Of a stretch of DNA of 53,787 nucleotides, positions 25,444-52,595 are shown piece by piece (within the stretch, counting starts at the first letter, position 1; each line of letters starts with the position of its first letter). The notes below the pieces were generated by a model, which saw only the letters and a list, made by a program, of their open reading frames with translations, ran no database searches and was not told the origin of the DNA. Source of the DNA: a virus (lineage: Duplodnaviria; Caudoviricetes); the IMG/VR virus record IMGVR_UViG_3300042465_006905, positions 1 to 53,787 of that record. One strand, written 5' to 3'. Made by a program: the position numbers and the translations under genes.

Positions 25444-25455
25444 GCAAAAATAGCG

Positions 25456-25462: not shown

Positions 25463-25466
25463 ACAT

Positions 25467-26150: not shown

Positions 26151-26156
26151 ACCACG

Positions 26157-27374: not shown

Positions 27375-27376
27375 TT

Positions 27377-28496: not shown

Positions 28497-28501
28497 AAAC
28501 A

Positions 28502-29635: not shown

Positions 29636-29643
29636 AAAACATG

Positions 29644-29650
29644 ATAAATA
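29644..29650 (+). promoter_or_regulatory. T4-type late promoter-like ATAAATA
   Basis: Intergenic ATAAATA upstream of 29677, followed by a GGAG RBS-like sequence. Confidence 0.55.
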
Positions 29651-29676
29651 AACTTAATATTGGAGCGTTTACTTAA

Positions 29677-31197: not shown

Positions 31198-31209
31198 TAG
31201 GAAAAAAAT

Positions 31210-32211: not shown

Positions 32212-32242
32212 GGTAAAACTCGGCGGCTTCGGCCGCTTTACC
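32212..32242 (+). terminator. C(UUCG)G tetraloop hairpin, probable terminator of the structural operon
   Basis: GCGGC-TTCG-GCCGC at 32223-32236 followed by TTT; outer GGTAAA (32212-32217) pairs with TTTACC (32237-32242). The U-tract is short. Confidence 0.6.
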
Positions 32243-32265
32243 TTGGGTGCAATTTGTGTTATACT
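32237..32265 (+). promoter_or_regulatory. sigma70-like promoter with extended -10
   Basis: TTTACC (32237-32242), 17-nt spacer, TATACT (32260-32265) with TG at 32257-32258; ATG at 32272. Confidence 0.55.
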
Positions 32266-32271: not shown

Positions 32272-32586
32272 ATGAGCGACCTTAAACCCATTGTAGAACA
32301 AATTCGACAAGCAACAGACTACCATTTAAATGCCGAAATACTTCGAGAACGCATACTGACCAAAATGCACATCACACACAATGGTGGTATGTTTCGAATC
32401 ACTCCCGAGCTATTGGCATTTGTCAAAACCTGGCCCACAGATGAATTGTACTTGGAAGATGTATTTCACAATCCCATTGAAGTGGATCGTCAAGTATTCT
32501 TAGTCACAGCACAACAGCATTACCAAGAGGTAATGAACGAATGGCACCAACAACATGCCGAACTTAAACAAATCCGCAAAATCTAA
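32272..32586 (+). CDS. hypothetical protein, first gene of the modification cluster
   Basis: ATG 32272 (MSDLKPIVEQ...) is preferred over the track's TTG 32254, which lies inside the promoter; overlaps the next gene. Confidence 0.65.
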   Translation: MSDLKPIVEQIRQATDYHLNAEILRERILTKMHITHNGGMFRITPELLAFVKTWPTDELYLEDVFHNPIEVDRQVFLVTAQQHYQEVMNEWHQQHAELKQIRKI

Positions 32587-33352
32587 AGGCGTTGTAATAT
32601 TTGCAACCAATACTCGTGAAACAGATTATGTGGCTATTGCAGAACAAAACGCTAGACTAGTACAACATTTTTTGGGATTGCCCACAACCATTGTTGGTGC
32701 AACGGATACCGGCACCAACCAACGATTTAGTTCAGACACAGGTACATTTGTAGAATGGAATAATTTTGGAAGACACGAAGCATATGAAGCAAGCCCTTAC
32801 GACGAAACCATCATTCTTGATGCCGACTATCTTATACTTGACGATAGTCTTGATAAGTTATTTCAGTGCCCTTTCAATTACTTGCTTTTTAATCGAAACC
32901 ACACCGTCGATGGCGTATATGAGCCCTGTGTGATGGGACCACACAGTTTGCCTTTTGTGTGGGCCACTGCTGTGTTGTTTAGACGCAGTGAACAGACTCA
33001 AATGTTTTTTGAACTGGTGGCAAGAATCAAACGCAACTACGATTACTACAGATTGCTGTACAATGTTCGGGAAGGCAATTATAGAAATGATTATGCCTTT
33101 GCCATCGCTCACTATATTCTAAGTGGCTATCGGGTGGCAAAAAACACATTTGCACCACATAGTATCACAACATTTGCAGGTGCTATTACTAGCATGGAAT
33201 TACGAGACCATCGTGTTGTTGTGCGCTCAGATCAAGCCTATGTGTTGCCCCTGCAGAGCCTGCATGTTATGAGCAAACGATATTTGACCAGTCCCAATTT
33301 AAAGGAATTTGTAGATCAATGCCTAAGCACTATGCCCAGCAAGGCTTCTTAA
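32555..33352 (+). CDS. GT-A fold glycosyltransferase-like protein
   Basis: GVVIFA N-terminal strand, AYEASPYDETIILDADY (DxD), WAT..LF, YRNDYAF, and late H.M.K, a GT8-like layout. Confidence 0.6.
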   Translation: MPNLNKSAKSKGVVIFATNTRETDYVAIAEQNARLVQHFLGLPTTIVGATDTGTNQRFSSDTGTFVEWNNFGRHEAYEASPYDETIILDADYLILDDSLDKLFQCPFNYLLFNRNHTVDGVYEPCVMGPHSLPFVWATAVLFRRSEQTQMFFELVARIKRNYDYYRLLYNVREGNYRNDYAFAIAHYILSGYRVAKNTFAPHSITTFAGAITSMELRDHRVVVRSDQAYVLPLQSLHVMSKRYLTSPNLKEFVDQCLSTMPSKAS

Positions 33353-34167
33353 CTGTAGCAATTAATACCCCGATCACAGACTACCTACGGCTTGCTTACC
33401 TACAGGCGCTAAATATACAAGCAACGCAACGGATTAAGAACTGTAGTGTCATAGTTGATTCGGCAACACTACAGCAAGTCACTGAACAACATCGTCGTGT
33501 ATTTGAGCACATAATTCCCACAAATCGAGTTGAAGCACAAGGCCCATATGCCAACGAATGGCATGCTTGGTGGCTAAGTCCCTACAAAGAAACTGTTAAG
33601 TTAGAAGCAGACTTGTTGTTTACTCGTAGCATAGATCACTGGTGGACTGCTTTCAGATTGCAGGATGTTTGTCTGAGTTACGGATGTCGAACTTACCAAC
33701 AGCGTGAATCACATGTTAGAAAGTACCGGCAAGTATTTGATGCCAATCGATTGCCTGATGTGTACAATGGATTAATGTATTGGCGTTACAGTGAAACAAG
33801 TCGACAGTTTTTTGAACTAGCAAGGCAGATATTTGAAAATTGGGTGGATGTAAGAGCAGAGCTAAAGAATTGTGATGACCCTTACCCAACAACTGATGTG
33901 GTGTATGCTGTAGCGGCAAAAGTTATGGATACTGCCTGTTACAATCCCAGTTTGGATTTTGTAAACTTTGTACACATGAAGTCGGGCATACAGGACTGGA
34001 GCGATGATCAACCTTGGACCGAGTATTGTATAACTGAACAAGATGGTGACATGTTACGCATCAATAACATTAACCAATTTGCACCGGTACACTATCATGA
34101 AAAAAGTTTTGCCACAGATGAACTAATTGAATACTATGAGCGACGAGTTATACCAACAATTTCCTAA
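33319..34167 (+). CDS. GT-A fold glycosyltransferase-like protein, paralogue of 32555
   Basis: GFLTVA.N...DY, SPYKETVKLEADL (ExD), YNGLMYWR.SE...FF.L, TDVVYA, FVHMK, HYHEK. Confidence 0.6.
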   Translation: MPKHYAQQGFLTVAINTPITDYLRLAYLQALNIQATQRIKNCSVIVDSATLQQVTEQHRRVFEHIIPTNRVEAQGPYANEWHAWWLSPYKETVKLEADLLFTRSIDHWWTAFRLQDVCLSYGCRTYQQRESHVRKYRQVFDANRLPDVYNGLMYWRYSETSRQFFELARQIFENWVDVRAELKNCDDPYPTTDVVYAVAAKVMDTACYNPSLDFVNFVHMKSGIQDWSDDQPWTEYCITEQDGDMLRINNINQFAPVHYHEKSFATDELIEYYERRVIPTIS

Positions 34168-34456
34168 ACAACAACTTGAATATCGGTTGTACTACGATGC
34201 AAAGGGACGACCAACATGCATGGCCAGTCACGATTATCCAGCAGGTGATTATGTTGTTATTACCAAAGAGCAATATGAACGACCAAATTACAATGTGCGT
34301 GTACTGAATGGCACCATTGTGTTTGACACCCGAGACCATTTTCATGTACAATTAAAAAGAAGCAATACAGGTGTGGCTGTAGTACGAGGCCACGCTAGCC
34401 TTGTACTAGAAAATGATCATTACAAAGAAATAGAATACTATGACAGAAATAGTTGA
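34136..34456 (+). CDS. hypothetical protein
   Basis: Overlaps both neighbours; contains EYRLYYD..G. Start could be 34127 or 34136. Confidence 0.6.
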   Translation: MSDELYQQFPKQQLEYRLYYDAKGRPTCMASHDYPAGDYVVITKEQYERPNYNVRVLNGTIVFDTRDHFHVQLKRSNTGVAVVRGHASLVLENDHYKEIEYYDRNS

Positions 34457-35339
34457 TGTAGCAGACTTAGATTGTGTATACCTAACTTATGATGAACCTC
34501 GACGAGAAGAATTTTGGGTACAAATTCAAAATCTTGTACCGTGGGCAAAGCGTGTGGACGGCGTTAAAGGAAGCGATGCCGCTCATAAGGCGTGTGCAGA
34601 TATTAGCGACACTGATAGGTTTGTTCTTATCGACGGCGATAATATTCCTGACAGCAATTTCTTCAATCTTCAATTAGAGCTCAACGACACCAATAGGGAC
34701 TGTGTGTTCCGTTGGAGAGCCCGCAATGCTATCAACGGCTTGATGTATGGCAATGGTGGCATGAGTTCATGGACAAAGGAATTTGTCTATGCCATGCGTA
34801 CACATGAAGCCACAGATGGCACTGCGGCCAATGATGTAGAATTTTGTTTCTATCCCAACTATTGGAGTATGTATGACTGCTACTCAACTACCTATCCTGA
34901 CGCCACCCCGTTCCAAGCCTGGCGTGCCGGCTTCCGCGAGGGTGTTAAGATGTCATTGGATCGCGGTGTTAAACCATCATTGGTTGAGTTTGAAAGTCGT
35001 GTAAACAATCGCAACTATGATAACTTGTGTATATGGCAAACAGTGGGCGCAGACAATGAAAACGGTGCCTGGGCCATAATGGGCGCACGACATGGCACAT
35101 TCAAGACCATGTTAACTGATTGGGCCTACACACAAGTGCAGAGTTTCGATGCATTACAGTCTATATGGGACGCAGAAGCAAAGCACACAGATGTAGTTGA
35201 CGAAGCACACAGCTATGGCGATCACATACGCCGGCGATTAGGATTGCCCATTGTAGATATGGATTCGGCAGAGAGTCGGTTCTTCAAACATCACTACATG
35301 AGCCAGTACAAAAATAAAGGACCAATGATCCGTGAGTAA
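34440..35339 (+). CDS. glycosyltransferase-like protein (GT-A, DGD motif)
   Basis: DCVYLTYDEP, VDGVKGSDAAHKAC, FVLIDGDN, NAINGLMYGNGG, AWRAGFREGVK; homologous to the last domain of 50337..52595. Confidence 0.6.
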   Translation: MTEIVDVADLDCVYLTYDEPRREEFWVQIQNLVPWAKRVDGVKGSDAAHKACADISDTDRFVLIDGDNIPDSNFFNLQLELNDTNRDCVFRWRARNAINGLMYGNGGMSSWTKEFVYAMRTHEATDGTAANDVEFCFYPNYWSMYDCYSTTYPDATPFQAWRAGFREGVKMSLDRGVKPSLVEFESRVNNRNYDNLCIWQTVGADNENGAWAIMGARHGTFKTMLTDWAYTQVQSFDALQSIWDAEAKHTDVVDEAHSYGDHIRRRLGLPIVDMDSAESRFFKHHYMSQYKNKGPMIRE

Positions 35340-36717
35340 AAGTGATTTCATGTCTGCGGCTGAGCAGATGAAACAACAACTGGGTCCTGCACTTTGCCTT
35401 GCCAAATGGCAACAGGTAAGCCTACACTTGCCCACTGGTCTTAACAACAGTTGTTACCATCCACCATTGCATAAAATAGATGTTGAACCGTTGAAAGCAA
35501 ATCCCGGCGCACTACACAACACCGCTTATAAAAAAGAACAGCGGAAGATCATGATCCGTAACGAAAAACCCAGTGAGTGTAGTTACTGCTGGAATATTGA
35601 AAAGCACGATCAGCTTAGTGATAGACATTATCGGTCGGGTGAAAAGTGGGCCGTAGAACATTTTGATGCCATACAAAATTCCTCAGGAGATGAAGATGTT
35701 GTTCCAAGTTATGTGGAAGTTAATTTTAATCATGCTTGTAATCTCAAGTGTAGTTATTGTAGCCCCCAGTTTAGTAGCAGTTGGCAAGCAGAAGTTGACA
35801 AGTTTGGCGGATATCCTACTAGCGTTGTTCATAATGACCCTGCTCACTTTGTTGGTAGCCGGCGTCCTATACCCCATTCTCAACCCAACCCCTATGTAGA
35901 TGCCTTCTGGGAATGGTGGCCTGAACTGTACCCCAAACTAAAACACTTTCGCATGACCGGTGGTGAACCCTTGATGGATCGTAACACTTACAAGGTATTT
36001 GACTATGTGTTGGCCATGCCCAATCCCGAATTGCACCTAGATGTTACCAGTAACTTCAGTGTAGAAGATGCCTTGATGGACAAATACCTTGGCTATGTTA
36101 AGCAGTTATGTAACACACAAATTGAACACTTCATGCAGTATGTTAGCTTAGACTCGGGCAACTATGCTCATGCCGAGTATATTAGACACGGATTAAACTA
36201 CAATCGTGTGGTTGAAAATGTCAACATGTTCTTGAGAGAAATTCCATATCGTAACAGTTTGACATTTATCATTACAATGAACAATCTCAGTGTGTTGGGC
36301 CTACAACAACAATTAGATTGGATACTGCGGTTGCGTAAGAACCATAGCACAACATATCAGCGTGTGTGGTTCGACACACCATTGCTACGCACACCCCGGT
36401 GGCAGAGTTTACAAATCCTACCGGCTGTGTATGTACGGCAATTGGAGCGTGTAGCGGACTGGATGGAACTGAATTTGGAAACACCAGATCGACCATTTCA
36501 AGGATTCAAAGATTACGAACTACAGCGTATGCGTCGCGATATTGCCTGGATGGAAGAAGGTCGCAATCTAGATCCTGAATATATTAAAATGCAAAGAGCA
36601 GACTTTTATCGGTTCTTCAATGAACACGATAAGCGTCGCCATACCAACTTTGAAGAAACATTTCCGCAAATGACGGAATTTTGGAAAGAATGTAGATACC
36701 ATGCCCAAAATAGTTAA
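35332..36717 (+). CDS. radical SAM protein with N-terminal twitch-like Cys module
   Basis: CNLKCSYC and TGGEP core, preceded by CLAKW...SCYH...ECSYCW; GTG start overlapping the upstream stop. Confidence 0.9.
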   Translation: MSKSDFMSAAEQMKQQLGPALCLAKWQQVSLHLPTGLNNSCYHPPLHKIDVEPLKANPGALHNTAYKKEQRKIMIRNEKPSECSYCWNIEKHDQLSDRHYRSGEKWAVEHFDAIQNSSGDEDVVPSYVEVNFNHACNLKCSYCSPQFSSSWQAEVDKFGGYPTSVVHNDPAHFVGSRRPIPHSQPNPYVDAFWEWWPELYPKLKHFRMTGGEPLMDRNTYKVFDYVLAMPNPELHLDVTSNFSVEDALMDKYLGYVKQLCNTQIEHFMQYVSLDSGNYAHAEYIRHGLNYNRVVENVNMFLREIPYRNSLTFIITMNNLSVLGLQQQLDWILRLRKNHSTTYQRVWFDTPLLRTPRWQSLQILPAVYVRQLERVADWMELNLETPDRPFQGFKDYELQRMRRDIAWMEEGRNLDPEYIKMQRADFYRFFNEHDKRRHTNFEETFPQMTEFWKECRYHAQNS

Positions 36718-38062
36718 CGAAACAGATTTAGAATACAAGCACAGAGTAATCGACATCAAGTCAGCCAGTTTCTGTGGAGCCAAATGGTACAATGCCACCA
36801 TTTGGCTAGGATCGGGCCAGACAACCAGTTGTCATCATCCTTTGCCGCATGCCATTGATCGAGATGAAATTAAAACCAATCCCAAGGCAATTCACAACAC
36901 ACAAAAGAAAAAAATGGAGCGTGAGCAAATGCAAAAGGGTGAGCGTCCCGCAGGTTGCGAATACTGTTGGAAGATAGAAGATATTAAAACAGATCCTTTC
37001 CCTGCCGCTATCAGTGATCGTGTTTATAAAACCGTAATATACAGTGACGAGGATCTAGCCCATGCACATAGAACACCTGCCAGCGAAGATGTCGATCTTC
37101 AAACGCTTGAAATTGCTTTTGATAGAACTTGTCAGTTTGCTTGTAGCTATTGTAACCCTGCTTTCAGTAGCACTTGGGTTAAAGATATTAAACAGCATGG
37201 ACCCTACACCAACCTGGTTAGTGACGGCAGGAACCATTTTACTCATGCTCATGATAGCAGTCAACTTTATAAATTTGGTGAAGTTAATCCGTATGTGGAA
37301 GCATTCCATAAATGGTGGGAAACAGATCTCCACAGAACCTTAAAGGAACTACGCATCACCGGCGGAGAACCCTTGATGAGTGCAGAGACTTGGAAACTAA
37401 TTGACTGGTTCAAAACAAACAAGGGTAAAAGCACTACTCGCTTGGCCATTAACAGTAACTTGGGCACTGATGTCGACATTGATCGCTTGCTAGACAGCAT
37501 TGACGGTGTTGAAGTTGACCTATACACCAGTAACGAAAGTATGAGCCTACAGGCAGAATATATTCGTGACGGGCTTGTGTTTGATGACTGGGCCAACAAT
37601 GTAGAACGCTTATTAGACTCAGGTCGGTTCCGTGGCATACATGTCATGGCAACCGTTAACGCATTGTGTTTAGACAGCCTAGACAGCTTTTTGGAAATGG
37701 TTATGAATTGGAAACGCGAGTATGGCAAAGATGCTGTTAACTTTTCGCTAAATATATTGCGCTTCCCAAGTTTTCAATCACTCACAGTACTACCCAAAGA
37801 TATCCGCCTGACCTATCACAACCGACTACATGACTTTGTCAACGGTTATAGACACGGCACAGAGATGCATGAATTTGAATGGAATCAATTATCACGACTG
37901 CTGAGTTATATTACTGAAGTAAGCGAAGCACACAAAGAAGCCATGTCTCAAACAATATTGCAACGCGACTTTAAAAACTTTTATCAACAATACGATCAGC
38001 GTCGAAACAAAAACTTCGCAGAAACATTTCCTGCATTAGCAGATTGGTATGATATGATATGA
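36701..38062 (+). CDS. radical SAM protein with N-terminal twitch-like Cys module
   Basis: CQFACSYC and TGGEP, preceded by CGAKW...SCHH...GCEYCW; tandem paralogue of 35332. Confidence 0.9.
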   Translation: MPKIVNETDLEYKHRVIDIKSASFCGAKWYNATIWLGSGQTTSCHHPLPHAIDRDEIKTNPKAIHNTQKKKMEREQMQKGERPAGCEYCWKIEDIKTDPFPAAISDRVYKTVIYSDEDLAHAHRTPASEDVDLQTLEIAFDRTCQFACSYCNPAFSSTWVKDIKQHGPYTNLVSDGRNHFTHAHDSSQLYKFGEVNPYVEAFHKWWETDLHRTLKELRITGGEPLMSAETWKLIDWFKTNKGKSTTRLAINSNLGTDVDIDRLLDSIDGVEVDLYTSNESMSLQAEYIRDGLVFDDWANNVERLLDSGRFRGIHVMATVNALCLDSLDSFLEMVMNWKREYGKDAVNFSLNILRFPSFQSLTVLPKDIRLTYHNRLHDFVNGYRHGTEMHEFEWNQLSRLLSYITEVSEAHKEAMSQTILQRDFKNFYQQYDQRRNKNFAETFPALADWYDMI

Positions 38063-39144
38063 TAAGTATTAGACATTTTGGATATTTTAATATACCACCA
38101 CATGGAGTAATTGATAACATATTAGGAAAACTAGAATTTAATCGCCCAGCAATATTTTTTATAATTGACCCGTTGACAGGTGAAGAACTTCCCTATGATG
38201 AAATGAAATTATTAGACAAAGATAATTTGTTTGTGATAGTTCACACCGGAGAAGGACATTCGCATTTAGAATTTGATATTCTTTTAAATCAGTTGTTGAA
38301 TATTGTTGGTGTTGTTCCCTCCCATATAACTTTATATACTGGATGTTTGTATGATCCACAAAGTCCAGTTAACAGTATAGGAACTATTGTTCCGCATTGC
38401 GGTGTAACTGTATCTTCAATCACACAGCATTTTATCAACTATCCAACAACACACCATTATGTATGTTTAAATAGATTACCTAGATGGGAAAGAGAAGAAA
38501 TAGTTACTGCATTACTTGATCGTAAAATAGATATGTATGGAAAAATTTCTTTTGCCTCAGCATTTACAAAAAATGAATACAGGCAGAAATTTAAAACTGA
38601 CAAAAGATACCGTGATAATTTTCCTTTGTATTTAGATGGAGTGCTTAAAAACATCAATCAAAGTTTTCAAATCGAAGACCAAAGTATAACAGGAGCTTTG
38701 TTTAATGTAGTTACAGAAAGCTCGTATGAAATAGTAGATAAATTATACATGTCTGATGATTCTACTCAAGAAACTATAACTGGACAATCGTTGCCTGTAT
38801 TTTCAGAAAAACTGTATAAATCATTTTTAGTTGGGCAAATTCCCATATTAGTAAGTCCATATTATACTGTTAATGTTGCTAGAGAGTTTGGGTTTGACAT
38901 GTTTGATGACATAATAGACCATGGTTACGATTTAGAAAAAGACGCAATCAAACGAATTCAATTGATAGCAGATCAAGTTGAAAAAATTTGTAATATGAGC
39001 ATACAGGATCTTGTTGCCTTAAAAGAAAAAATCATGCCCAGGTTAATAAAAAATTATAATCGTGTACACCATTGGGCATTTAATATAGATGGAGATTTGC
39101 CTCGTTGGGAAAAATATTTTAGACAACTTGGCGTGTTGGCATGA
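38059..39144 (+). CDS. GT10/fucosyltransferase-like (GT-B) protein
   Basis: CLNR.PR..R, FNVVTES...FSEKLYKSF..GQIPI...GFDMFDDIIDHGYD, resembling the E.S...TEK....P donor-binding motif. Paralogue of 49154..50338; visibly more AT-rich than its neighbours. Confidence 0.5.
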   Translation: MISIRHFGYFNIPPHGVIDNILGKLEFNRPAIFFIIDPLTGEELPYDEMKLLDKDNLFVIVHTGEGHSHLEFDILLNQLLNIVGVVPSHITLYTGCLYDPQSPVNSIGTIVPHCGVTVSSITQHFINYPTTHHYVCLNRLPRWEREEIVTALLDRKIDMYGKISFASAFTKNEYRQKFKTDKRYRDNFPLYLDGVLKNINQSFQIEDQSITGALFNVVTESSYEIVDKLYMSDDSTQETITGQSLPVFSEKLYKSFLVGQIPILVSPYYTVNVAREFGFDMFDDIIDHGYDLEKDAIKRIQLIADQVEKICNMSIQDLVALKEKIMPRLIKNYNRVHHWAFNIDGDLPRWEKYFRQLGVLA

Positions 39145-39968
39145 AACCAACTCTACCCTTCCTTGAAACAATGGCCACACAGGTATGTAACCTTAGTTGT
39201 AGTGGGTGTACCAACTACAGCGATTTACCACATCAGGGCTATGTTAGATGGACGGACATGGAACAAGATTTGACTGCTTGGTTGCAGGTAATGGATATTG
39301 CTGATTTTGGTATTATGGGCGGAGAACCATTGATCAATCCTGAGATACGCGAATGGTTGTATGGCGTAAGAGGTTTGATGCCACAAAGTCAAATACGATT
39401 TACTACCAATGGTTTGTTATTGAATCGACATTTTGATGTGCTGGATATAGCTCATGAAGTTGGTAATACGGTATTTAAAATTACAGTACATACTCCGGGG
39501 TCAGAAATTGAATCAGTAATACAACAGATATTTGACAAGTACAATTGGGAACCAGTCATTGAACATGGAATACAACGCTGGCGCACCACAAACAATTTGC
39601 GTTTTCAGATCAATCGCCCCGTTCAGTTTGTGAAAAGTTACAAAGGTGTGTATAATAACATGAGACCGTATGACTCTATTCCTGCAGAGAGTTTTGGTGC
39701 TTGCATTCAACAAACATGCCCATTGTTGTACAAAGGTAGAATTTACAAGTGTAGCACACAGGGACTATTGAAAGAAACATTGGCAAAAGTGGGAGATCCC
39801 AATTTAACAGAGTGGAAACCCTACTTGGTAGATGGTATTGGAGTAGATGACATTGATGATATTGATCATTTCGTGTCGAATTTTGGTAAGCCTGCGGCAG
39901 TGTGTCGTATGTGCCCAAGCAAACATAATCTAGACGCATTTATTATACACAAGGCAGAATTAAAATGA
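39141..39968 (+). CDS. radical SAM protein (short type, C-terminal Cys residues)
   Basis: CNLSCSGC near the N-terminus, MGGEPLINP, TTNGLLL, and C-terminal C...C...YKC...C.MCP. Confidence 0.9.
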   Translation: MKPTLPFLETMATQVCNLSCSGCTNYSDLPHQGYVRWTDMEQDLTAWLQVMDIADFGIMGGEPLINPEIREWLYGVRGLMPQSQIRFTTNGLLLNRHFDVLDIAHEVGNTVFKITVHTPGSEIESVIQQIFDKYNWEPVIEHGIQRWRTTNNLRFQINRPVQFVKSYKGVYNNMRPYDSIPAESFGACIQQTCPLLYKGRIYKCSTQGLLKETLAKVGDPNLTEWKPYLVDGIGVDDIDDIDHFVSNFGKPAAVCRMCPSKHNLDAFIIHKAELK

Positions 39969-44847: not shown

Positions 44848-45592
44848 TTTTGTTTATGGCAGTGAGTTAGAAAGTCCTAATAACACATTTACCGCCCTAC
44901 TGGGTGCAGAAGAATGCGTAGCATGGCCTGGGTACGGAAATGATGCAATTGCCCGTACCACAATTGAGCGTTGCGAACAAGGTGGAGTCAGTGGTGTAGT
45001 GGTAAGTTGGACATTCCCCGGACGCTACGAATTTAGATTTGCGTACGAAACCCTACAAAAACATAGTCCTTGGTATTGTATCAATGCATGGACCATCAAG
45101 CAAGATGTAGAAGAAATTGAACAAGAGTTTGTTACTAAAGATAATGTTATATTGAATCATCAAATTGCCACTATTAACAGGGCGAAAAGAACAGGAGTTG
45201 CAGATTTTGCAGAAGTATTTTATCGACACGTTGGTAGCACAGAGTATTGGGAAATATACAGTAGTCTAAAAGAAATTGTTTATTTGCAAAATTATTTAAA
45301 ATTAAAATCAATACCTTTTATGTTTACCTGTGCTGATACCATACTGTTTTACCACGCAACTAAACGAGATAGTGTACTTGATAGTTTGTTTAATCAAATT
45401 GATTTTGATCATTGGTTTTTCTTTCCTGGCGGAAACGAATGGGAAACCACAGACCCAAGAGGTTTTTACCAGTGGGCTGTGGAGAATAAATACAAAGTAG
45501 GAACTACGCATCCACTTGAAGATGCACATAAAGATGCCGCCCAATTAATGCAGGGAAAATTCAATGAAATGGTTAAAAAATCTATACTATAG
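44825..45592 (+). CDS. SGNH/GDSL-like hydrolase or acyltransferase
   Basis: N-terminal AAGDSFVYG (block I Ser), PG.GN (block II), WT...R.E, and C-terminal THP...AH. Confidence 0.65.
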   Translation: MIIAAGDSFVYGSELESPNNTFTALLGAEECVAWPGYGNDAIARTTIERCEQGGVSGVVVSWTFPGRYEFRFAYETLQKHSPWYCINAWTIKQDVEEIEQEFVTKDNVILNHQIATINRAKRTGVADFAEVFYRHVGSTEYWEIYSSLKEIVYLQNYLKLKSIPFMFTCADTILFYHATKRDSVLDSLFNQIDFDHWFFFPGGNEWETTDPRGFYQWAVENKYKVGTTHPLEDAHKDAAQLMQGKFNEMVKKSIL

Positions 45593-45665
45593 AATTGTAC
45601 TAGAAATACGGTACCGTAAGAAACTTAAAGAGTTACGCAAAAGAGATCCGTTTATTTACAAATGA
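45564..45665 (+). CDS. 33-aa basic peptide ending DPFIYK (not in ORF track)
   Basis: Hand translation: MKWLKNLYYRIVLEIRYRKKLKELRKRDPFIYK*. It bridges the gap between the two SGNH genes, and its stop overlaps the next start (ATGA). Confidence 0.75.
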   Translation: MKWLKNLYYRIVLEIRYRKKLKELRKRDPFIYK

Positions 45666-46309
45666 ACATATTGGCTGTTGGGTGTAGTTTTACGCACGGA
45701 TCAGAATTAACTAACCCAAAAATATCAGCATGGCCATACTTGTTGGGACAAAAAAATAACTGGAAAGTAAACAATCAAGGCATAGGTGGCGGAAGCAACG
45801 ACCGTAGTGTTCGTGTTTGTTTTGAAGAAGTGCCAAATAAGTATGATTTGATCATAGTGGCCTGGACAATACACGAACGAATTGAAGTTCCATCTGACTC
45901 GGGATTACTAAATGTAACGCTGGGCTATGCTGAGAAACATAATTTATCTTGGGCCACAGAATATTTTACCAAACATTACGATAGATTGTACAGCTACCAA
46001 CGCTGGCTGAGACAGGTAATTATGTTACAAAGTTATTTTAAACAGAATAATCAACGATACTTATTTTTAAGTACATTTGGTATTTGGTCTGATTTAAGAG
46101 AAGCACATTACGACGAGTATATGTTAAAATTGCAGTATTTGGTAGACCAAGTTGACAGTGCATGTTACATAGATTGGCCAAAATGGGGAATGGTGGACTG
46201 GCAAGGTGATTGCCCTAGAGGACCAGGAGGTCATCCATTGGAATTGGGGCATCAAAGAATAGCAGAAAGAATCAATGAACATATTAGGCATCTCGGCTGG
46301 CTTTCATGA
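45662..46309 (+). CDS. SGNH/GDSL-like hydrolase or acyltransferase, paralogue of 44825
   Basis: AVGCSFTHG, GG.SN, AWT..ER.E, and C-terminal GHPLELGH. Confidence 0.65.
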   Translation: MNILAVGCSFTHGSELTNPKISAWPYLLGQKNNWKVNNQGIGGGSNDRSVRVCFEEVPNKYDLIIVAWTIHERIEVPSDSGLLNVTLGYAEKHNLSWATEYFTKHYDRLYSYQRWLRQVIMLQSYFKQNNQRYLFLSTFGIWSDLREAHYDEYMLKLQYLVDQVDSACYIDWPKWGMVDWQGDCPRGPGGHPLELGHQRIAERINEHIRHLGWLS

Positions 46310-47765
46310 TGCGGCCGCCACAGTAATTGATCGCCATGGCGAGATACTATTTGCTGGCCATAGCGAGCGTTATAGTAAACGTAAGAATGATGAAAACTTC
46401 TGTGCACCATTGATCAAAGAATTGGAAAACTATAACCCAATCGATACAGTGGCATATTATGAACGCCCTTTAATGAAACAGTTGCGCCAATTGTACAGTG
46501 GTCAAGGGATTGAGTGGAATCGACTCAGTGTGAAGAAAAACATACACGATCAGATAGGTCATGCCAATTGGCAGGATGTCAAACACTACAAGAATTACAA
46601 TCATCATTTGAGTCATGCGGCAGCAGGGTTTCAAACCAGCCCATTTGATAGAGCCACTGTGGTGGTGATTGACGCAATAGGTGAATGGGATACCATAAGT
46701 ATATGGGGGGCTGAATATGATAAGAAAACTGGTCGAGCGAATTATACGAAGTTGTGGAGACAGAGTTACCCGCATAGCATCGGACTCTTTTATTCTGGAG
46801 CGACTGGCCGCGTTGGCCTACGCCCACTAGACGAAGAATACATCTTAATGGGCATGGCAGCCTATGGTGACCGTAGACATGCTGTGCCCATGCAGGATCG
46901 ATTGATAGCACACGAATACGACATACGATTCAAAGAAAATCTACATATAGGATTAAACGAAGATTTTATGCCTGGTACCAGTGATATGGATATTGCGGCT
47001 GGAGCACAGGAACTAGCAGAACAACTTATACTAAATGTCATGACTCGTGCAAAACGATTTGCTTGGAGTGACAATTTGGTTTACATGGGAGGTGTGGCCC
47101 TTAACTGCGCCGCTAACTCTAGAATAGGAAACTACTTTGAAAAAATTTGGATTATGCCTTGCCCTGGCGATAGCGGCAGTAGCCTTGGTGCCGCAGGCCT
47201 TGTTTGGGGCCGCCGTATTAATTGGAACAACGCTTTTCTGGGCCACCTTATTCCTGGGCCTTATCCTGTTAATGGTGCCTTGGATGCTCTTCTCACTGAT
47301 CGTATTGTGGGTGTGGCGAGCGGTCGTGCCGAGTTCGGCCCGCGAGCGTTGGGCAACAGAAGTCTCCTCGCAGACCCCCGCGGAAAGGAAATAAAGGATC
47401 AAGTAAATGAGATTAAACGCAGACAAAAGTTCAGACCCTTTGCGCCTGTTATTTTGGAGGAGTTGGCTGATACTTACTTTGATATGCCTAGGGGCTGGGA
47501 TCGCAGTAGGTATATGCAAACAATCGCTCGCTGTAGGTTACCTGACTTATTTCCTGCTATCATTCATCATGATGGCACTAGTCGTGTACAAACTGTGCCA
47601 CGAGACGGATCGGGAATACGAGAACTTCTTGAGAAATGGTATGTGATGACCGACTGCCCCATGTTGTTGAATACCAGTCTAAATATCAGGGGCGAACCAA
47701 TGGTCAACGATCGTGCAGATGCTGACCGTTTTGAACAACTGTACGGAGTACAAGTAGTATCATGA
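46275..47765 (+). CDS. carbamoyltransferase, NodU/CmcH/TobZ family
   Basis: ILGISAGFHDAAA, ERYSKRKND, HHLSHAA, GGVALNC.AN, P.PGD.G..LGAA, EFGPRALGNRSLLADP, FRPFAP, HHDGTSRVQTV, LLNTSLN.RGEP.V. Confidence 0.95.
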   Translation: MNILGISAGFHDAAATVIDRHGEILFAGHSERYSKRKNDENFCAPLIKELENYNPIDTVAYYERPLMKQLRQLYSGQGIEWNRLSVKKNIHDQIGHANWQDVKHYKNYNHHLSHAAAGFQTSPFDRATVVVIDAIGEWDTISIWGAEYDKKTGRANYTKLWRQSYPHSIGLFYSGATGRVGLRPLDEEYILMGMAAYGDRRHAVPMQDRLIAHEYDIRFKENLHIGLNEDFMPGTSDMDIAAGAQELAEQLILNVMTRAKRFAWSDNLVYMGGVALNCAANSRIGNYFEKIWIMPCPGDSGSSLGAAGLVWGRRINWNNAFLGHLIPGPYPVNGALDALLTDRIVGVASGRAEFGPRALGNRSLLADPRGKEIKDQVNEIKRRQKFRPFAPVILEELADTYFDMPRGWDRSRYMQTIARCRLPDLFPAIIHHDGTSRVQTVPRDGSGIRELLEKWYVMTDCPMLLNTSLNIRGEPMVNDRADADRFEQLYGVQVVS

Positions 47766-47938
47766 CAGAAACACACACAAGAACACTAGCAAGAACAATC
47801 GCATATAGAATTATTGCATTGCTTATAACTGCCATATGGACCGGGCTAGGTGATGCCGTGGCAATTCATATTGTATTGGCCACGGTACAATATGTTATGG
47901 AACGAGCCTGGCTCAAAATTAAATGGGGTAAACTATGA
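47762..47938 (+). CDS. 58-aa small membrane protein, DUF2061-like (not in ORF track)
   Basis: Hand translation: MTETHTRTLARTIAYRIIALLITAIWTGLGDAVAIHIVLATVQYVMERAWLKIKWGKL*. It shows the ET..R......YR...ER.W.KI.WG pattern and ATGA overlaps on both sides. Confidence 0.75.
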   Translation: MTETHTRTLARTIAYRIIALLITAIWTGLGDAVAIHIVLATVQYVMERAWLKIKWGKL

Positions 47939-48096
47939 CCGAAAAGAAAACAAACTTTGTGGAAGCTATCAAAGCCGCACAGGCAAATAAATCCAAAGTA
48001 CCATTAACCAAAGCACAACAGGTGCAACAGGTTAAATTTAAAAATCAAGTATCAAGTAACAAGCCAACTAAACGAACAGTGGGAAGGGGTGGATAA
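47935..48096 (+). CDS. 53-aa basic hypothetical protein ending GRGG (not in ORF track)
   Basis: Hand translation: MTEKKTNFVEAIKAAQANKSKVPLTKAQQVQQVKFKNQVSSNKPTKRTVGRGG*. It fills the gap exactly, ending 1 nt before the next ATG. Confidence 0.65.
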   Translation: MTEKKTNFVEAIKAAQANKSKVPLTKAQQVQQVKFKNQVSSNKPTKRTVGRGG

Positions 48097-48097
48097 A

Positions 48098-48940
48098 ATG
48101 AAACAAGCACAACGAATACTAATTATGGGCCTGCCGGGAGCAGGTAAAACTTATTTTGCAGAGCGACTAAAAACGTACATTGAAGGGCACATAACCGCCA
48201 TCGACGAGAACTCGTTAACACCCATATCGGATGCTCGAATTACAGTGGCATGGCTAAATGCCGATGAGGTGCGTAGACATTACAATGATTGGGACTTCAG
48301 TCAAGAAGGCCGCATACGCCAAAGTCAGCGTATGCGTGACCTAGCAGATGAAGCCAATACAGATTACTGTATTGTGGACTTTGTTGCACCCCTGGTTGAA
48401 ATGCGTAACAACTTCAAAGCAGATTGGACCATCTGGATTGACACAATTGAAAAAGGTCGTTTTGAAGATACTAATAAAATGTTTGTACCACCTGAGGTAT
48501 ACGACTTCCGGATCACCGAGCAAGCGGCAGAGAAGTGGGTGGAGTTTGTGGGCGAGCATATCATTGAGAACAGACGCAGACCTGTATTCAATTGGCAAAC
48601 AGAAACAGTACAAATGTTGGGTCGCTGGCAACCATGGCATGCTGGACACCGTGCGCTGTTTGATCGTGCCATTGCCAAAACTGGACAAGTGGTTATACAA
48701 ATACGCGACTGTCAGGGATGGCAAGGAACCAATCCCTTTGCCATTGAGCAAGTTAAATACTTTATACGCAGAGATTTAGATGCTCTGTACCAAGGCCAAT
48801 ATGAAATACAAGTGGTTCCTAATATTGTTAATATTACTTACGGTCGCGATGTGGGCTATAGAATTGAACAAGAGTCCTTTGATGAATCGATTACCGATAT
48901 CTCAGCGACCAAGATAAGACGGAGTATGGGTCTTGAATAA
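48098..48940 (+). CDS. cysC: adenylylsulfate (APS) kinase-like domain fused to an HxGH nucleotidyltransferase domain
   Basis: GLPGAGKT Walker A, LNADEVR, DFS.EGR, FVAP (CysC-like); C-terminal half MLGRWQPWHAGH...ISATKIR (HIGH/KMSKS-type). ATG 48098 is preferred over GTG 48089. Confidence 0.75.
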   Translation: MKQAQRILIMGLPGAGKTYFAERLKTYIEGHITAIDENSLTPISDARITVAWLNADEVRRHYNDWDFSQEGRIRQSQRMRDLADEANTDYCIVDFVAPLVEMRNNFKADWTIWIDTIEKGRFEDTNKMFVPPEVYDFRITEQAAEKWVEFVGEHIIENRRRPVFNWQTETVQMLGRWQPWHAGHRALFDRAIAKTGQVVIQIRDCQGWQGTNPFAIEQVKYFIRRDLDALYQGQYEIQVVPNIVNITYGRDVGYRIEQESFDESITDISATKIRRSMGLE

Positions 48941-49157
48941 GTATCACATTAGATTCAATACCAAACATAATGGATCAGATCTAGTTTGGCGCATATTTGA
49001 AAACGGTGTGGAACATCTGGCAAAGGATGTTAGACTAGTTGGCGAAACATTCACTGAATGTACACATGAGCATGGCGAGACCAAATGGAACATTGCCTGC
49101 TATGGCAGACTGGTGTGGGAAGACACCGTAGCAGTAATTGTCACAGACAAAGATTAA
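48933..49157 (+). CDS. hypothetical protein (74 aa)
   Basis: TTG start with GGAG upstream, overlapping the previous stop; its stop shares TTAA with the convergent gene. Confidence 0.65.
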   Translation: MNKYHIRFNTKHNGSDLVWRIFENGVEHLAKDVRLVGETFTECTHEHGETKWNIACYGRLVWEDTVAVIVTDKD

Positions 49158-50338
49158 GTCTGTGACACAACAGATTGGTAACGATCTGCTCTCGGGATAT
49201 TATATTGTTGTAATACCGGAGCAGACTCTACAGCCTCTTTTAAATTAGTTGTTAGTTCTTGCCAGGCCAGGTTCACAAACTCTGGACTATTGAACAGTTT
49301 GAAATTGTGTTCTAGTACTGGCTCCATTTCGTGCAACATGGCAGTTAATTGACCCAATGTCAAACTAGATATGTATTCAACAATGTTGGCTACCGCTTGT
49401 AATCGTTGCACTGGATCTTCAATATGATCGTAACTTTCATCCCACCATTGGTCAAATGTTTGAAATCCATAGCTCTTAAAGTATTCTAAATTATGAGCAC
49501 AGCCCACTAGTACAAACGGTTGTTTAAGTATAACAGGTTTAAAGGTCTTTTCAGTTAAGTGACACTTTCTTTCCCAATAACAAGTTTCTGTGATAACATG
49601 TAGAAATGTTTCCATGCATTGATCTACTGCACTCAATACCATGCTGTTGTTGGGGATGGCATCTTTTTCTGGATAGTCTATACGCAACGGGTGTGCCAAA
49701 TGATCCAGCTGTTGTTTGATTTGATCTATGTATGTAGGGTCTATGTTGTATTCAGTAACAGCATAATCTAAGGCGGTGCTGTAGTGCCCATGTTCGGGAC
49801 ACTGATCACTGTAACTAACATAACCACTGCCAATAAGATTTCGTTTGGCCAACTCTCCTACAAATAAACTTCTATAAACTCTGGCGTTGCCTGTTAATCT
49901 GTTAAATGTAATATACTTTTTTCTAATAGTTCGTTTTGTTACTGGCAATATTGTTGAATCAAATTGATAACCGCGGAACCAATCATGCGCGGCAAATATA
50001 TGAAAGAATCCATAACAAGGTATAAAGTCGTATTTTTCAACAAAGTAATCTAGTGCGTCACTGTTGCGTTCTGTGGTAACTAATATTACAGGCCTCATGA
50101 GATTCCTGGCTTTTCGAAACACACAGCCAAATAGCAAATCGTTGTAGCCTTGGTACAACGGTTCCTGATCGTAACATAACACAATAGGATCTCGATCAAG
50201 ACTTTCGTCTGTGTCTAGTACTTCTATGTTTTCGAGCGAACTGGCACCAAATGGATATAGATATTCTAACCGGGGTTGTGTTATAATAGTTTTTAAAAAA
50301 CTAAAAAGATTAAAATAATGACTGTGGATATTGTACAT
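49154..50338 (-). CDS. GT10/fucosyltransferase-like (GT-B) protein, paralogue of 38059
   Basis: The listed protein MYNIHSHY... reads only from the reverse complement (CAT at 50336-50338, TTA at 49154-49156), so the track's '+' label is wrong. Motifs: TFNR...R.YR, LHVITET...HLTEKTFKPVILKQPFV...GFQTFDQWWDESYD. Confidence 0.7.
   Translation of the reverse strand: MYNIHSHYFNLFSFLKTIITQPRLEYLYPFGASSLENIEVLDTDESLDRDPIVLCYDQEPLYQGYNDLLFGCVFRKARNLMRPVILVTTERNSDALDYFVEKYDFIPCYGFFHIFAAHDWFRGYQFDSTILPVTKRTIRKKYITFNRLTGNARVYRSLFVGELAKRNLIGSGYVSYSDQCPEHGHYSTALDYAVTEYNIDPTYIDQIKQQLDHLAHPLRIDYPEKDAIPNNSMVLSAVDQCMETFLHVITETCYWERKCHLTEKTFKPVILKQPFVLVGCAHNLEYFKSYGFQTFDQWWDESYDHIEDPVQRLQAVANIVEYISSLTLGQLTAMLHEMEPVLEHNFKLFNSPEFVNLAWQELTTNLKEAVESAPVLQQYNIPRADRYQSVVSQT
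50279..50287 (+). promoter_or_regulatory. possible extended -10 promoter (TGtTATAAT) for 50337
   Basis: Perfect TGnTATAAT 50 nt upstream of ATG 50337, inside the divergent gene; no clear -35. Confidence 0.35.
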
Positions 50339-52595
50339 GTTTGATGTGTTTTACTCGGGACCAAAACCCAATCGGTTTGCGTTTGAGCGTCCTGCTGACT
50401 CTCTTGAACATGCGGCTAGTCTAAGCCGAACTGGATACTATTGGTATATTTATGGTGGCAATGATTACACCGACTTTGATTTCTCATTTGAGCCTGCTCC
50501 GTGGGAAAGTGATCAGGTACATGTGTTTCCCAGCCAATGGCAACCGGATGGCGGAGTGTATCTAGCAAATAAAGATACTGTGCATACCAAGCAATGGCAT
50601 TTTAGAACTGAACAGACAGTAACTAGAAAGCCACCAAATAATTTGTTAGACCATTGGCATATACCAGAGGAAGTTAATCGAGATGTTGTGGACTTTAGTT
50701 GGCATCCAAATCCCCTGGATCCACCTTACATATATCATTTTGGGTCAGACTATCAAGTCAGTGTTGGCCTAACATACACTGTCGACAATGCTACAGAAAT
50801 TAAATTTGCAGGACCTGTGCCTGGCACAGACAACCCATTAGAAGTCTTAGATATATTTTTTATTGATCGCTGTAACCCGTTATCACAACCACGGTATGAC
50901 AGACTGGCCGAACGCCATACTGTTACCAAAGTGAGATATGCCAACAGCATAATGGATACAGTACGCAGATGTATCACACGGGCTAAAACAAACAAATTTT
51001 GGATTATCAGCAGTGAATATGATTACAGCAACTTTGACTTTGCTTGGCATGCTGAGCCTTGGCAAAACTTTATGACACATGTATTTCCTAGTCAACATAA
51101 CCGATGGAGTGACACATTCTTAATTAACCGTTGGGAGTTTGAGCGACACAGTGAATGGGCCAATGGTCTAGAAGAGTTTCCTAATTTGAATTTTGTAACT
51201 AATCAGAGGGTGACTAAAACAGAAAACCTGCACAACATCTATTATGTAGATCATACCAACCCTGAAAGTCAAATTCAGTACAAGTTATTAAAGAAATTTG
51301 AACCAGATATTATTCTAACTCGCTTTGCTAACAGTTACCTTGATACAATGAAGCGTATTATGAGTATAGCAGACACTGAATATGTTTGGATAATAAACAG
51401 TGTTTGCAATTATGACTTCTTTGATTTTACTTGGCAACCAGAACCGTGGCAACGAGAAATGATACACTGTTTTGCCAACAGTAATGGACTTTGTGATTGT
51501 CCGCGTGGTGATACATTTTACATTCATGTTGAATCGTTTCGGAAACAAATGGTTGAGCTTGAGTTACTAGATTGGTTCAATGTAATCAACTATAATAATT
51601 TTCCTTCTGTACAACGCTGGCCCACTCCTGTAGTATATTATGAAACAGATAATTTAATAGAAGCTGTACAAAAACATAAATTTGAGACTCCGTATGCGTT
51701 GTTTACCAATCAAAAGGATATTTTGGATCCGTTGGGAAGTAGCACTTGTCTGTGGAGTGATAAAGACCGTGTAACAATAACATTTACACGCAGTCGAGCT
51801 ACTGCATTGGTACCCAGGGAAATAAAACGCTATTTAAAGACGCAAATCTACGATTATCCTTACCTGGAGAAGGAGAATTCACAGGATTTCTTTGCCGAGA
51901 AGCCGTTAGATATTGTGTACATCAGCAACGGCGAACCCGATGAACAACGTTATTACAACAACTTGGAAGATGATGTTTATGGTAATCCTTTAAGAGATCC
52001 TAGACATCGTATCAAATGGGTGCGTGGTGTTGATGGGCGAGTTGCCGCATATCAAGAGGCCGCTAGACAAAGCTCAACCGACTGGTTCTTTGCTGTGTTT
52101 GCAAAACTGGAAGTAGACTGTGTTGATTGGGCCTGGCAACCCGACTATTGGCAACAGCCCAAACACTATATCTTCAATGCCCGCAATCCTGTTAACGGAT
52201 TAGAGTATGGACACATGGGCATGATTGCTTATAATAAGCGGTTAGTGTTGGCAAACAATGCGCCTGGCATTGACTTTACCTTGAGTCAGCCACATGAAAG
52301 TGTACCCATACTGAGTGGAACAGCACATTTTAATCAAGATGCTTGGACCACTTGGCGCACAGCATTTAGGGAAGTGCTGAAATTGCGATTGTTTATGGAG
52401 ACACAACCCACTGTAGAAACCGAGCACAGGCTCGCAACTTGGCTATCAACAGCCCAAGGTAATTACAGCAATTATTGCTTGGCAGGTGCTAGAGATGCTG
52501 TAGAATACTACGAATCTGTTGCGGGAGACGCTGATAAACTGCAACTCAGCTTTGATTGGCGGTGGCTCCGGGATAAGTATGACGCTAAATACTAA
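50337..52595 (+). CDS. multi-repeat glycosyltransferase-like protein (degenerate GT-A repeats)
   Basis: Repeated D[VI]F[YF]...[YF]W.I....DY..FDF.W.PEPW....HVF units, plus a C-terminal domain homologous to 34440 (LDIVYISNGE, VRGVDGRVAAY, NPVNGLEYGH, WRTAFRE). ATG 50337 is preferred over TTG 50331. Confidence 0.6.
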   Translation: MFDVFYSGPKPNRFAFERPADSLEHAASLSRTGYYWYIYGGNDYTDFDFSFEPAPWESDQVHVFPSQWQPDGGVYLANKDTVHTKQWHFRTEQTVTRKPPNNLLDHWHIPEEVNRDVVDFSWHPNPLDPPYIYHFGSDYQVSVGLTYTVDNATEIKFAGPVPGTDNPLEVLDIFFIDRCNPLSQPRYDRLAERHTVTKVRYANSIMDTVRRCITRAKTNKFWIISSEYDYSNFDFAWHAEPWQNFMTHVFPSQHNRWSDTFLINRWEFERHSEWANGLEEFPNLNFVTNQRVTKTENLHNIYYVDHTNPESQIQYKLLKKFEPDIILTRFANSYLDTMKRIMSIADTEYVWIINSVCNYDFFDFTWQPEPWQREMIHCFANSNGLCDCPRGDTFYIHVESFRKQMVELELLDWFNVINYNNFPSVQRWPTPVVYYETDNLIEAVQKHKFETPYALFTNQKDILDPLGSSTCLWSDKDRVTITFTRSRATALVPREIKRYLKTQIYDYPYLEKENSQDFFAEKPLDIVYISNGEPDEQRYYNNLEDDVYGNPLRDPRHRIKWVRGVDGRVAAYQEAARQSSTDWFFAVFAKLEVDCVDWAWQPDYWQQPKHYIFNARNPVNGLEYGHMGMIAYNKRLVLANNAPGIDFTLSQPHESVPILSGTAHFNQDAWTTWRTAFREVLKLRLFMETQPTVETEHRLATWLSTAQGNYSNYCLAGARDAVEYYESVAGDADKLQLSFDWRWLRDKYDAKY
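52586..52591 (+). promoter_or_regulatory. T4-type late promoter-like TAAATA
   Basis: TAAATA 4 nt before ATG 52596, the same spacing as at 7217 and 25457. Confidence 0.5.

Follow-up and report, generated by a model that had tools for sequence, protein, structure and literature searches.

Introduction

Phage genes for glycan synthesis beside tail-fibre genes, and the glycosylation of virions, are already in print, to judge from the available portions of PMC7029224, PMC12619734 and PMC12801897. For pelagimyophages, the available text of PMC7029224 joins tail fibres, glycosyltransferases (GTs, with GT8 the commonest) and radical S-adenosylmethionine (SAM) cassettes in one 'host recognition cluster'. 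We analysed a comparable locus in a 53,787-nucleotide stretch of virus DNA (Caudoviricetes; positions 1 to 53,787, the full length of the IMG/VR record IMGVR_UViG_3300042465_006905), hereafter called the window. At 32272–52595, directly behind baseplate and fibre genes, the window carries 18 open reading frames (ORFs), referred to below by their lower coordinate. The protein families found in and around this fibre-tied cluster support its reading as a carbohydrate-building and -tailoring module.

The likeness to the T4-like pelagimyophage and cyanomyophage clusters in the available text of PMC7029224 lies in the arrangement, with fibres followed by many GTs and radical SAM cassettes, and in the variability between relatives. 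The published clusters are described there as hypervariable, whereas the core of the present one was strongly conserved across a jumbo-phage clade; it also differed in its five paralogous N_Twi radical SAM units and in families without Pfam models. The 'Moraphages' of PMC12619734 have four core putative GTs and are placed outside the T4 group, and radical SAM is not mentioned in the portion of that paper available. We considered the moraphages as a possible match and did not equate them with the present clade.

Glycosylation of mycobacteriophage virions has reportedly been described by Freeman et al. in 2023, with phage GTs said to modify virion proteins in the cytoplasm, in a system that is said to work without tailoring enzymes of the radical SAM, carbamoyl or SGNH kind. 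It concerns other hosts and other phage types, and for the present cluster we infer the acceptor. An earlier note on the window, made from the sequence alone, had proposed a glycan synthesis and tailoring system acting on the virion; its overall interpretation was partly supported by the analysis reported here.

Results

Conservation of the cluster and its link to the fibre genes

The ORFs overlap or abut from 32254/32272 to 47765, in agreement with the earlier description of overlapping genes directly behind the fibre module; gaps of 323 and 213 nucleotides then follow. All are on the plus strand except 49154–50338, which is on the minus strand, a detail that the earlier note had not given. 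An IMG/VR scan with 34440 gave 211 related loci, of which the best 80 were kept and compared with the window proteins by tblastn. Of the 77 loci with 3.5 kb or more of upstream DNA, 75 had a fibre homologue immediately ahead of the cluster, and the gene order 32272, 32555, 33319, 34440 was likewise unbroken in 75/77. Two to six N_Twi units were located within 10 kb downstream, with a mode of five (29 of 57 loci). Median identity across the 80 loci was 68–74% for 34440 and the radical SAM units and lower, at 39–45%, for the fibres. The link to fibre genes, for which the earlier note had suggested a synteny survey in related jumbo phages, was observed both in these loci and in phage RsoM2USA.

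The Ralstonia jumbo phage RsoM2USA (343.8 kb) gives this synteny independent depth beyond the clade of close relatives. Among 50,697 deposited phage records it alone had a 34440 homologue, and the cluster order recurred in it at 28–38% identity: a fibre-type N-terminus, homologues of 32272, 32555 and 33319, an extra ORF, 34440, an N_Twi radical SAM gene and a second 34440-like gene. A second RsoM2USA locus (L002) contained an SGNH-like gene, a radical SAM gene with 50% identity to 36701, a further pair of SGNH-like genes and a carbamoyltransferase gene. These cluster genes are not mentioned in the available part of the RsoM2USA description (PMC8504454). The complete 329 kb relative G006 encoded six NF033640 genes, five of them consecutive. 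The cultured Vibrio phages K566 and K567 had five matches to the NF033640 family, of which two exceeded the curated cut-off. In K566 these matches were clustered without GT-like genes; this K566 cluster (L184, 155412–180296) adjoins a nicotinamide phosphoribosyltransferase gene and a PagP-like gene.

Radical SAM enzymes

PF04055 matched five ORFs (35332, 36701, 39141, 39965 and 42417), one of them, 39965, in two stretches, which confirmed the six radical SAM cores counted earlier. Five of the cores are members of NF033640 (N_Twi_rSAM, 'twitch domain-containing radical SAM protein', curated cut-off 170 bits). Unit 1 (35332..36717; 302 bits) was present in 77 of the 80 loci. Unit 2 (36701..38062; 289 bits) is the one with the RsoM2USA counterpart at 50% identity. 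Units 3 and 4 are fused in a protein of 841 residues (39965..42490; 729 bits over two stretches), corresponding to separate adjacent genes in most relatives, and 4 of the 50,697 deposited phage records matched this double protein. Unit 5 (42417..43775; 291 bits) was found in 70/80 loci with a median identity of 74%, and its true start is probably near 42477. The remaining core belongs to a short protein of 275 residues (39141..39968; PF04055 44.3 bits) with the core motif CNLSCSGC and a C-terminal Cys cluster. It scored 29.5 bits against NF033640 and is not a member; it was rare (5/80 loci) and is accessory.

In an alignment of 11 N_Twi sequences, comprising the five window units and six relatives, C42, C60/61, C102 and C105 of the auxiliary cluster were invariant, as were C156, C160 and C163 of the SAM cluster (CX3CX2C) and the GGE motif (G215–G216). 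The best PDB match of the radical SAM core was a synthase of the ribosomally synthesised and post-translationally modified peptide (RiPP) class, the cyclopropyl synthase 8vpo (3.1e-8), and SkfB and YydG matched too. Viperin (6e-7), MoaA (9e-6) and BlsE (5e-5), enzymes with nucleotide or nucleoside-sugar substrates, matched as well. At the N-terminus, family positions 5–80 matched the BtrN twitch domain (E 2e-4). BtrN and the N_Twi units share an auxiliary four-Cys cluster domain alongside a CX3CX2C core; in BtrN, of ~250–270 residues, the twitch domain is C-terminal, whereas in the N_Twi units, of ~430 residues, it is N-terminal. Given this reversed domain order, the units do not belong to the BtrN-type dehydrogenases with a C-terminal twitch domain. 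A literature search, supplements aside, returned no paper on NF033640 or 'N-terminal twitch', nor any in which jumbo phage, radical SAM and carbamoyltransferase came together.

Carbohydrate-related genes in relatives and in bacterial loci

Within the 80 related loci, 297 ORFs without a window match formed 103 clusters, and 61 representatives located at or after the conserved genes were scanned. These variable slots contained a UDP-glucose/GDP-mannose dehydrogenase adjoining an NAD-dependent epimerase/dehydratase, a further epimerase, a DegT aminotransferase fragment, a hexapeptide acyltransferase and a GFO/IDH/MocA oxidoreductase. B12-binding and other radical SAM proteins, a TauD dioxygenase, an AMP-binding enzyme and a GDSL protein were also detected, together with the unrelated insertions of an HNH endonuclease and a dCMP deaminase.

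A motif scan for bacterial NF033640 proteins gave 375 relatives, and 78 loci were retained; the ORFs scanned, 120 in number, came from 11 loci situated on large contigs. The N_Twi neighbours in these 11 loci included carbamoyltransferase, a UbiA-GT4-GDSL fusion, sulfotransferases, GDSL, GT2, DegT, UDP-GlcNAc 2-epimerase, PMT_2, ABC-2 transporters and many PhyH dioxygenases, with WelO5, PEP mutase or KS/AMP-binding genes in single loci. By blast over the 70 loci L091–L160, carbamoyltransferase was found in 4, UbiA in 10, PhyH in 9 and Peptidase_S74 fibre-like proteins in 5. The bacterial loci resemble the phage cluster in combining two or three N_Twi paralogues with carbamoyltransferase, GDSL and sulfotransferase genes, as in the Crocinitomicaceae locus L096. 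They differ in adding UbiA, PMT_2 and ABC-2 and in being without the 32555, 33319, 34440 and 43729 families.

Among N_Twi loci from bacterial genomes, these four families occurred only in L083–L090, which are probably phage contigs binned into metagenome-assembled genomes (MAGs). L089 and L090, contigs of 183 and 148 kb from one MAG, both carry homologues of phage-specific cluster genes; since the two together are about as large as this phage type, they probably represent a jumbo phage that was binned with bacterial DNA. The Peptidase_S74 fibre-like proteins in Bacteroidota and Bdellovibrionota loci (L095:5261–6397 and L130:2559–3050; also L097, L127 and L131) echo the fibre linkage of the phages. 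In L093, from a Saprospiraceae MAG, two N_Twi genes lie amid eight PhyH paralogues and genes for a WelO5-type halogenase, UbiA, a methyltransferase and an ABC ATPase, which resembles an unusual tailoring locus.

Glycosyltransferase-like proteins

Three paralogous pairs of GT-like proteins had been described for the cluster. Their paralogy was borne out by blastp and profile-profile comparison; their likeness to GTs was indirect for 34440 and weak for the other two pairs. The 34440 protein (34440..35339), the most conserved of the block (80/80 loci, median 70% identity), contains a DxD motif, IDGDN, that was invariant in its family. A word-indexed search gave 8000 matches to the family (8000/8000 candidates scored), corresponding to 1390 representative clusters at 50% identity. 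No PF00535 match at E<=0.01 was obtained for 34440 itself. Among 48 homologues scanned with Pfam, six matched PF00535 over the region of 34440 residues ~30–140, including IDGDN, and one exceeded the gathering score (homologue P0254, with 29.8 bits within its 34440-like domain; cut-off 23.3). Five of the 48 fused an N-terminal EryCIII_C/GT28/UDPGT-type domain to a C-terminal 34440-like domain, and six contained Sel1 repeats. The family is GT2-like by this sequence assignment. The paralogue 50331 (50331..52595; 754 residues) consists of four tandem degenerate copies of the 34440 type, recognised by blast and sequence comparison, of which only the C-terminal third matched 34440 in blastp (4.4e-11). 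The copies correspond to the N-terminal half of the 34440 domain and have lost the DGD motif in 4/4 cases; 50331 is possibly a non-catalytic scaffold or binding protein.

The second pair, 32555 (32555..33352) and 33319 (33319..34167), was present in 80/80 loci. Both proteins are putatively GT-A-like: 32555, possibly GT8-like, has an invariant D89-x-D91 (alignment A8), and in 33319 (alignment A1) ExD replaces DxD. Their paralogy was evident in blastp (4.7e-5) and in the profile-profile comparison of A8 with A1 (98.4%, E 4.9e-15). For comparison with known families, alignments of GT8 (13 sequences) and GT10 (8 sequences) were built from genome hits. A8 aligned with GT8 over 107 columns with the DxD in register (hhalign E 0.007, probability 5.5%), and the A1 profile matched glycogenin-1 in the PDB (E 0.08–0.13, positions 4–110). 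No Pfam or PDB sequence match was found for 32555, and PF01501 (GT8) matched neither 32555 nor 33319, and the 26 sequences in the alignment of the 33319 family were likewise without a match. A search for longer, fused members of that family gave none, which is weak evidence, and five bacterial genomes carrying N_Twi loci yielded no GT8.

The third pair, 38059 (38059..39144) and 49154 (49154..50338), belongs to a variable family with 0–4 blast-detectable copies per locus, scattered among the radical SAM genes; 38059 was rare (10/80 loci). The two were paralogous in blastp over 96 residues only (7.5e-10). Their family alignment (A3) matched GT10 over 44 columns at an ENS..TEK motif (hhalign E 0.0033, probability 9.8%), with controls at E 0.33–0.5, including A3 against GT8 at 0.33; the family may be GT-B-like and possibly GT10-like. 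The nearest named Atlas clusters of 49154 were GT10 at 0.78–0.79, a lead only. Profile A3 retrieved 1126 homologues, and a Pfam domain was present in 0/120 among the matches listed. PF00852 (GT10) was absent from the window at E<=1 and matched 0/47 members of the family alignment; with only the 44-column motif match, the fucosylation proposed earlier is not supported. Searches of the PDB with single sequences and profiles gave nothing usable for 34440, 49154/A3, A8 or A9, and hhalign comparisons with two-sequence GT8 and GT4 alignments were not informative.

Carbamoyltransferase, SGNH-like proteins and kinase fusion

The carbamoyltransferase recognised earlier was confirmed in 46275 (46275..47765), which contains both the N-terminal and the C-terminal domain of the NodU/CmcH type (PF02543, 126.5 bits, 2e-36; PF16861, 157.8 bits, 2.4e-46; phrog_1601, 1.3e-92; also NCBIfam) and is 45.7% identical to the RsoM2USA gene. 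It shares its PF02543 and PF16861 family with NodU/NolO of Nod-factor carbamoylation. It differs in scoring 140 bits against the NodU equivalog (cut-off 1000), and NodA/B/C/H counterparts were not recognised beside it.

Two SGNH-like proteins had been proposed, and their motifs were confirmed. The first, 44825 (44825..45592), has an N-terminal GDSF and a homologue beside radical SAM and carbamoyltransferase genes in RsoM2USA; it had no Pfam match. The second, 45662 (45662..46309), has an N-terminal GCSF and matched DUF6071 (PF19547, 29.0 bits, cut-off 27), and three paralogues of it occur in the RsoM2USA locus L002. A GDSL Pfam match was found for neither protein, and both are candidate SGNH proteins by the GDSF/GCSF motifs and the DUF6071 match.

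What had been called an APS-kinase fusion proved to be a fusion, predicted from Pfam and NCBIfam, of a P-loop kinase with an HxGH NMNAT-like nucleotidyltransferase (48089..48940). Its match to PF01583 (APS_kinase) was marginal and partial, covering model positions 5–94 of 152 (24.7 bits, cut-off 21.1), and the APS kinase equivalog NF004041 scored 24.6 bits against a cut-off of 127. The gene follows the 323-nucleotide gap, and its membership of the cluster is doubtful. Full-length homologues (34–41% identity) were found in 12 siphophage records from Xylella, Stenotrophomonas, Xanthomonas and Clavibacter. In the one neighbourhood examined, that of Xylella phage Bacata, the homologue has nucleotide-metabolism genes around it and sits between a COG3236/NADAR-type gene, MazG and a topoisomerase. 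RsoM2USA encodes the kinase half only, far from either cluster locus. In the 19 window ORFs scanned, no sulfotransferase was matched by Pfam and no NodA/B/C/H-type family by Pfam or NCBIfam. Given the context of the kinase in these small siphophages and the lack of a sulfotransferase match in the window, the proposed sulfation with 3'-phosphoadenosine 5'-phosphosulfate and the Nod-factor analogy lack support; nor was the claim of a 'complete' glycan pathway upheld.

Other genes, genome context and expression signals

Three further proteins of the cluster could not be assigned to a family. The small protein 32272 (32272..32586), possibly a fibre chaperone, was conserved in 78/80 loci (median identity 56%) and in RsoM2USA, and had no Pfam match; its ORF opens at TTG 32254, and homologues align from residue 7. 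The small protein 34127 (34127..34456; 63/80 loci, median identity 36%) had no family match in Pfam, NCBIfam or PHROG scans. The conserved protein 43729 (43729..44847) contains invariant His, Glu and Asp residues (alignment A9) and had no usable Pfam, PDB or Atlas match.

CheckV estimated a completeness of 15% for the IMG/VR record, which corresponds to a genome of roughly 350 kb; the phage is a lake-water jumbo myophage, and the window represents ~15% of its genome. Fourteen lake-water metagenome runs, two of them possibly the source of the window, matched 75–98% of its sampled words, and six lake/freshwater RNA-library runs matched parts of it. T4-type baseplate proteins are encoded at 584–24433 (gp53-like, gp5-like with a Phage_base_V domain, and gp25). 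Within this region, 11090–24433 is a single baseplate-module ORF of 4447 residues that contains FG-GAP repeats and, for carbohydrate binding, a CBM5/12 module; the C-terminal part of this ORF is kept upstream of the fibres in relatives. The tail-fibre module (24436..32199, plus strand) comprises seven ORFs, recognised by their paralogy in blast and by homologues just upstream of the cluster in relatives. ORFs 26157, 28502 and 29677 share a common N-terminus, 29677 contains a Peptidase_G2 intramolecular-chaperone domain (1.2e-5), and 31210 is the last fibre-like gene before the cluster. Behind the cluster, an ORF at 52596–53786 runs off the 3' end of the window; it had a weak GNAT-like match (E 0.004) and matched PHROGs of unknown function.

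Searches for tRNAs and Rfam families in the window found none, and the phage collection contained no megablast match to the cluster. For the T4 late-promoter motif TATAAATA, 0 matches were counted against 3.1 expected. Counts of sigma-70-like sites (60 vs 51.6±6.5) and of terminator-like sites (20 vs 16.2±4.1) were not above shuffles. Contigs from the RNA libraries matched the fibre gene and, as short contigs, many cluster genes. Several cluster bins were not covered; as such contigs cannot show absence or expression level, nothing was concluded from this.

Discussion

Our best explanation of the cluster, held at a little under even confidence, is a glycan module whose products are carried by virion fibre or baseplate proteins. 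Conserved soluble cytoplasmic enzymes would build and then chemically edit a carbohydrate. The GT-A-like proteins 32555, 33319 and 34440 may lay down a short glycan, which the variable GT-B-like family, with its changing copy number, would diversify. Twitch enzymes carry out C-H chemistry on aminoglycoside sugars, and the five N_Twi radical SAM enzymes might do the same here by epimerisation, oxidation or deoxygenation. The SGNH-like proteins and the carbamoyltransferase would add or remove acyl and carbamoyl groups, and the fibre or baseplate proteins would be modified in the cytoplasm ahead of assembly. A more specific version, in which the N_Twi enzymes edit the glycan while it is attached to the fibre protein, each at a different carbon, so that rare sugars arise without nucleotide-sugar pathways and the GT-B-like genes vary the glycan between strains, seems rather unlikely.

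The choice of acceptor draws on several observations. None of the 18 cluster proteins contained a hydrophobic segment (19-residue Kyte-Doolittle window >1.6). The absence of an undecaprenyl-priming transferase, stated earlier for the window, extended to the five related phage genomes searched, in which neither Bac_transf nor Glycos_transf_4 was found (0/5, including the complete G006 and RsoM2USA). G006 has a single ThyA-family gene (360 bits), which we read as an ordinary thymidylate synthase. The lack of membrane segments and of a priming transferase, the ordinary ThyA and the fixed position beside the fibres favour a macromolecular acceptor made by the phage in the cytoplasm. Virion fibre or baseplate proteins are accordingly preferred to the host envelope or DNA, a preference that we hold tentatively and would not yet call probable.

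Several points weigh against this interpretation. No Pfam GT family matched any window protein, A1 reached only E 0.36 against GT8, and the GT8 and GT10 links, though in register, stay below threshold (hhalign probabilities 5.5% and 9.8%). The 80 loci are close relatives (60–90% identity at 34440), so that the counts describe one clade, and in RsoM2USA the half with radical SAM, SGNH-like and carbamoyltransferase genes lies ~90 kb from the fibre-linked half. A terminator-like GC-rich hairpin, GGCGGC-UUCG-GCCGCU followed by the U-rich tail UUUACCUU (32222..32245, plus strand; fold z -2.36), lies behind the stop codon of the fibre gene and ahead of the cluster's first gene, and perfect-stem GC-rich hairpins with T-runs were found at the same place in ~12/78 related loci. 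RNA-library contigs over the fibre gene 31210 ended at 32197–32207 in 4/4 runs. Taken with the hairpin, these ends mean that co-transcription of the cluster with the fibre gene is not shown; the contigs cannot rank expression, and DNA carry-over is possible. Finally, the bacterial homologues use membrane components, which leaves room for a lipid-linked acceptor supplied by the host.

The last point leads to the main rival, modification of the host O-chain. Here the cluster would remodel the host envelope, changing sugars of lipopolysaccharide, capsule or glycoproteins via host lipid carriers and exporters and thereby blocking superinfection or altering adsorption. The UbiA, PMT_2 and ABC-2 transporter genes of the bacterial N_Twi loci fit such a role, as does the hairpin dividing fibre gene and cluster; the available text of PMC7029224 favours O-chain modification for its fibre, GT and radical SAM cluster. 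However, the 18 cluster proteins include no membrane protein, priming transferases were missing from all five related phage genomes, and the greater conservation of 34440 and the radical SAM enzymes relative to the fibres would be better explained by a substrate internal to the phage than by host O-chains, which vary. We regard envelope remodelling as unlikely. Modification of a RiPP-like kind, with radical SAM enzymes introducing crosslinks or epimerisation into the fibres or into the small proteins 32272 and 34127 and with the GT-like proteins in a secondary role, would agree with 8vpo as the best PDB match of the core, with the SkfB and YydG matches, with the two small conserved ORFs within the block and with the Peptidase_S74 fibre-like proteins beside N_Twi genes in 5/70 bacterial loci. 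These PDB matches span only the generic radical SAM core, though, and viperin, MoaA and BlsE score similarly. We saw neither an RRE nor a protease nor a leader-type peptide, and 10 of the 11 bacterial loci scanned were without peptide-maturation genes, most of them having genes of glycan or lipid type; a C39 ABC exporter occurs in L150 alone. A peptide-type modification is considered improbable.

A further alternative is that the block makes a small soluble product for takeover or counter-defence, for instance a modified nucleotide-sugar or an aminoglycoside-like compound, which would stay free instead of being joined to a macromolecule. Sets of twitch radical SAM enzyme, carbamoyltransferase, aminotransferase and dehydrogenase resemble aminoglycoside-type pathways, the BtrN twitch domain matched the N-terminus at 2e-4, and L158 and L093 have natural-product-like neighbours (KS, AMP-binding, WelO5, PhyH). 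Such a product would leave the several transferase-like proteins and the strict fibre adjacency (75/77 loci) unexplained, and no exporter is present. We consider it slightly less likely still. The least probable of the four alternatives is hypermodification of the phage DNA with sugars and carbamoyl groups on its bases, for which we see very little chance. Phage GTs and carbamoyltransferases do act in DNA hypermodification. RsoM2USA has a second, weak ThyA-like gene (85 bits), and a dCMP deaminase and a QueC-like ORF were found in the slots of two relatives. The available portions of PMC12619734 and PMC12801897 also cite phage GTs and carbamoyltransferases in this role. On the other side, the complete relative G006 has only the one ThyA-family gene at 360 bits, Pfam, NCBIfam and PHROG scans of the 19 ORFs recognised no DNA-binding or base-flipping domain, and the block is located in the structural region.

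Returning to a glycan module that acts on fibre or baseplate proteins, the 34440 family is large (1390 clusters) yet appears in one deposited phage record. If the product sits on the fibres, it would bear on host recognition, on evasion of proteases and defence, and on phage serology in abundant freshwater jumbo phages. The cluster offers a defined, soluble, multi-paralogue system for learning what N_Twi radical SAM enzymes do. Fibre-glycan editing, if true, would be a new kind of post-translational modification of virions and would give NF033640 its first function.

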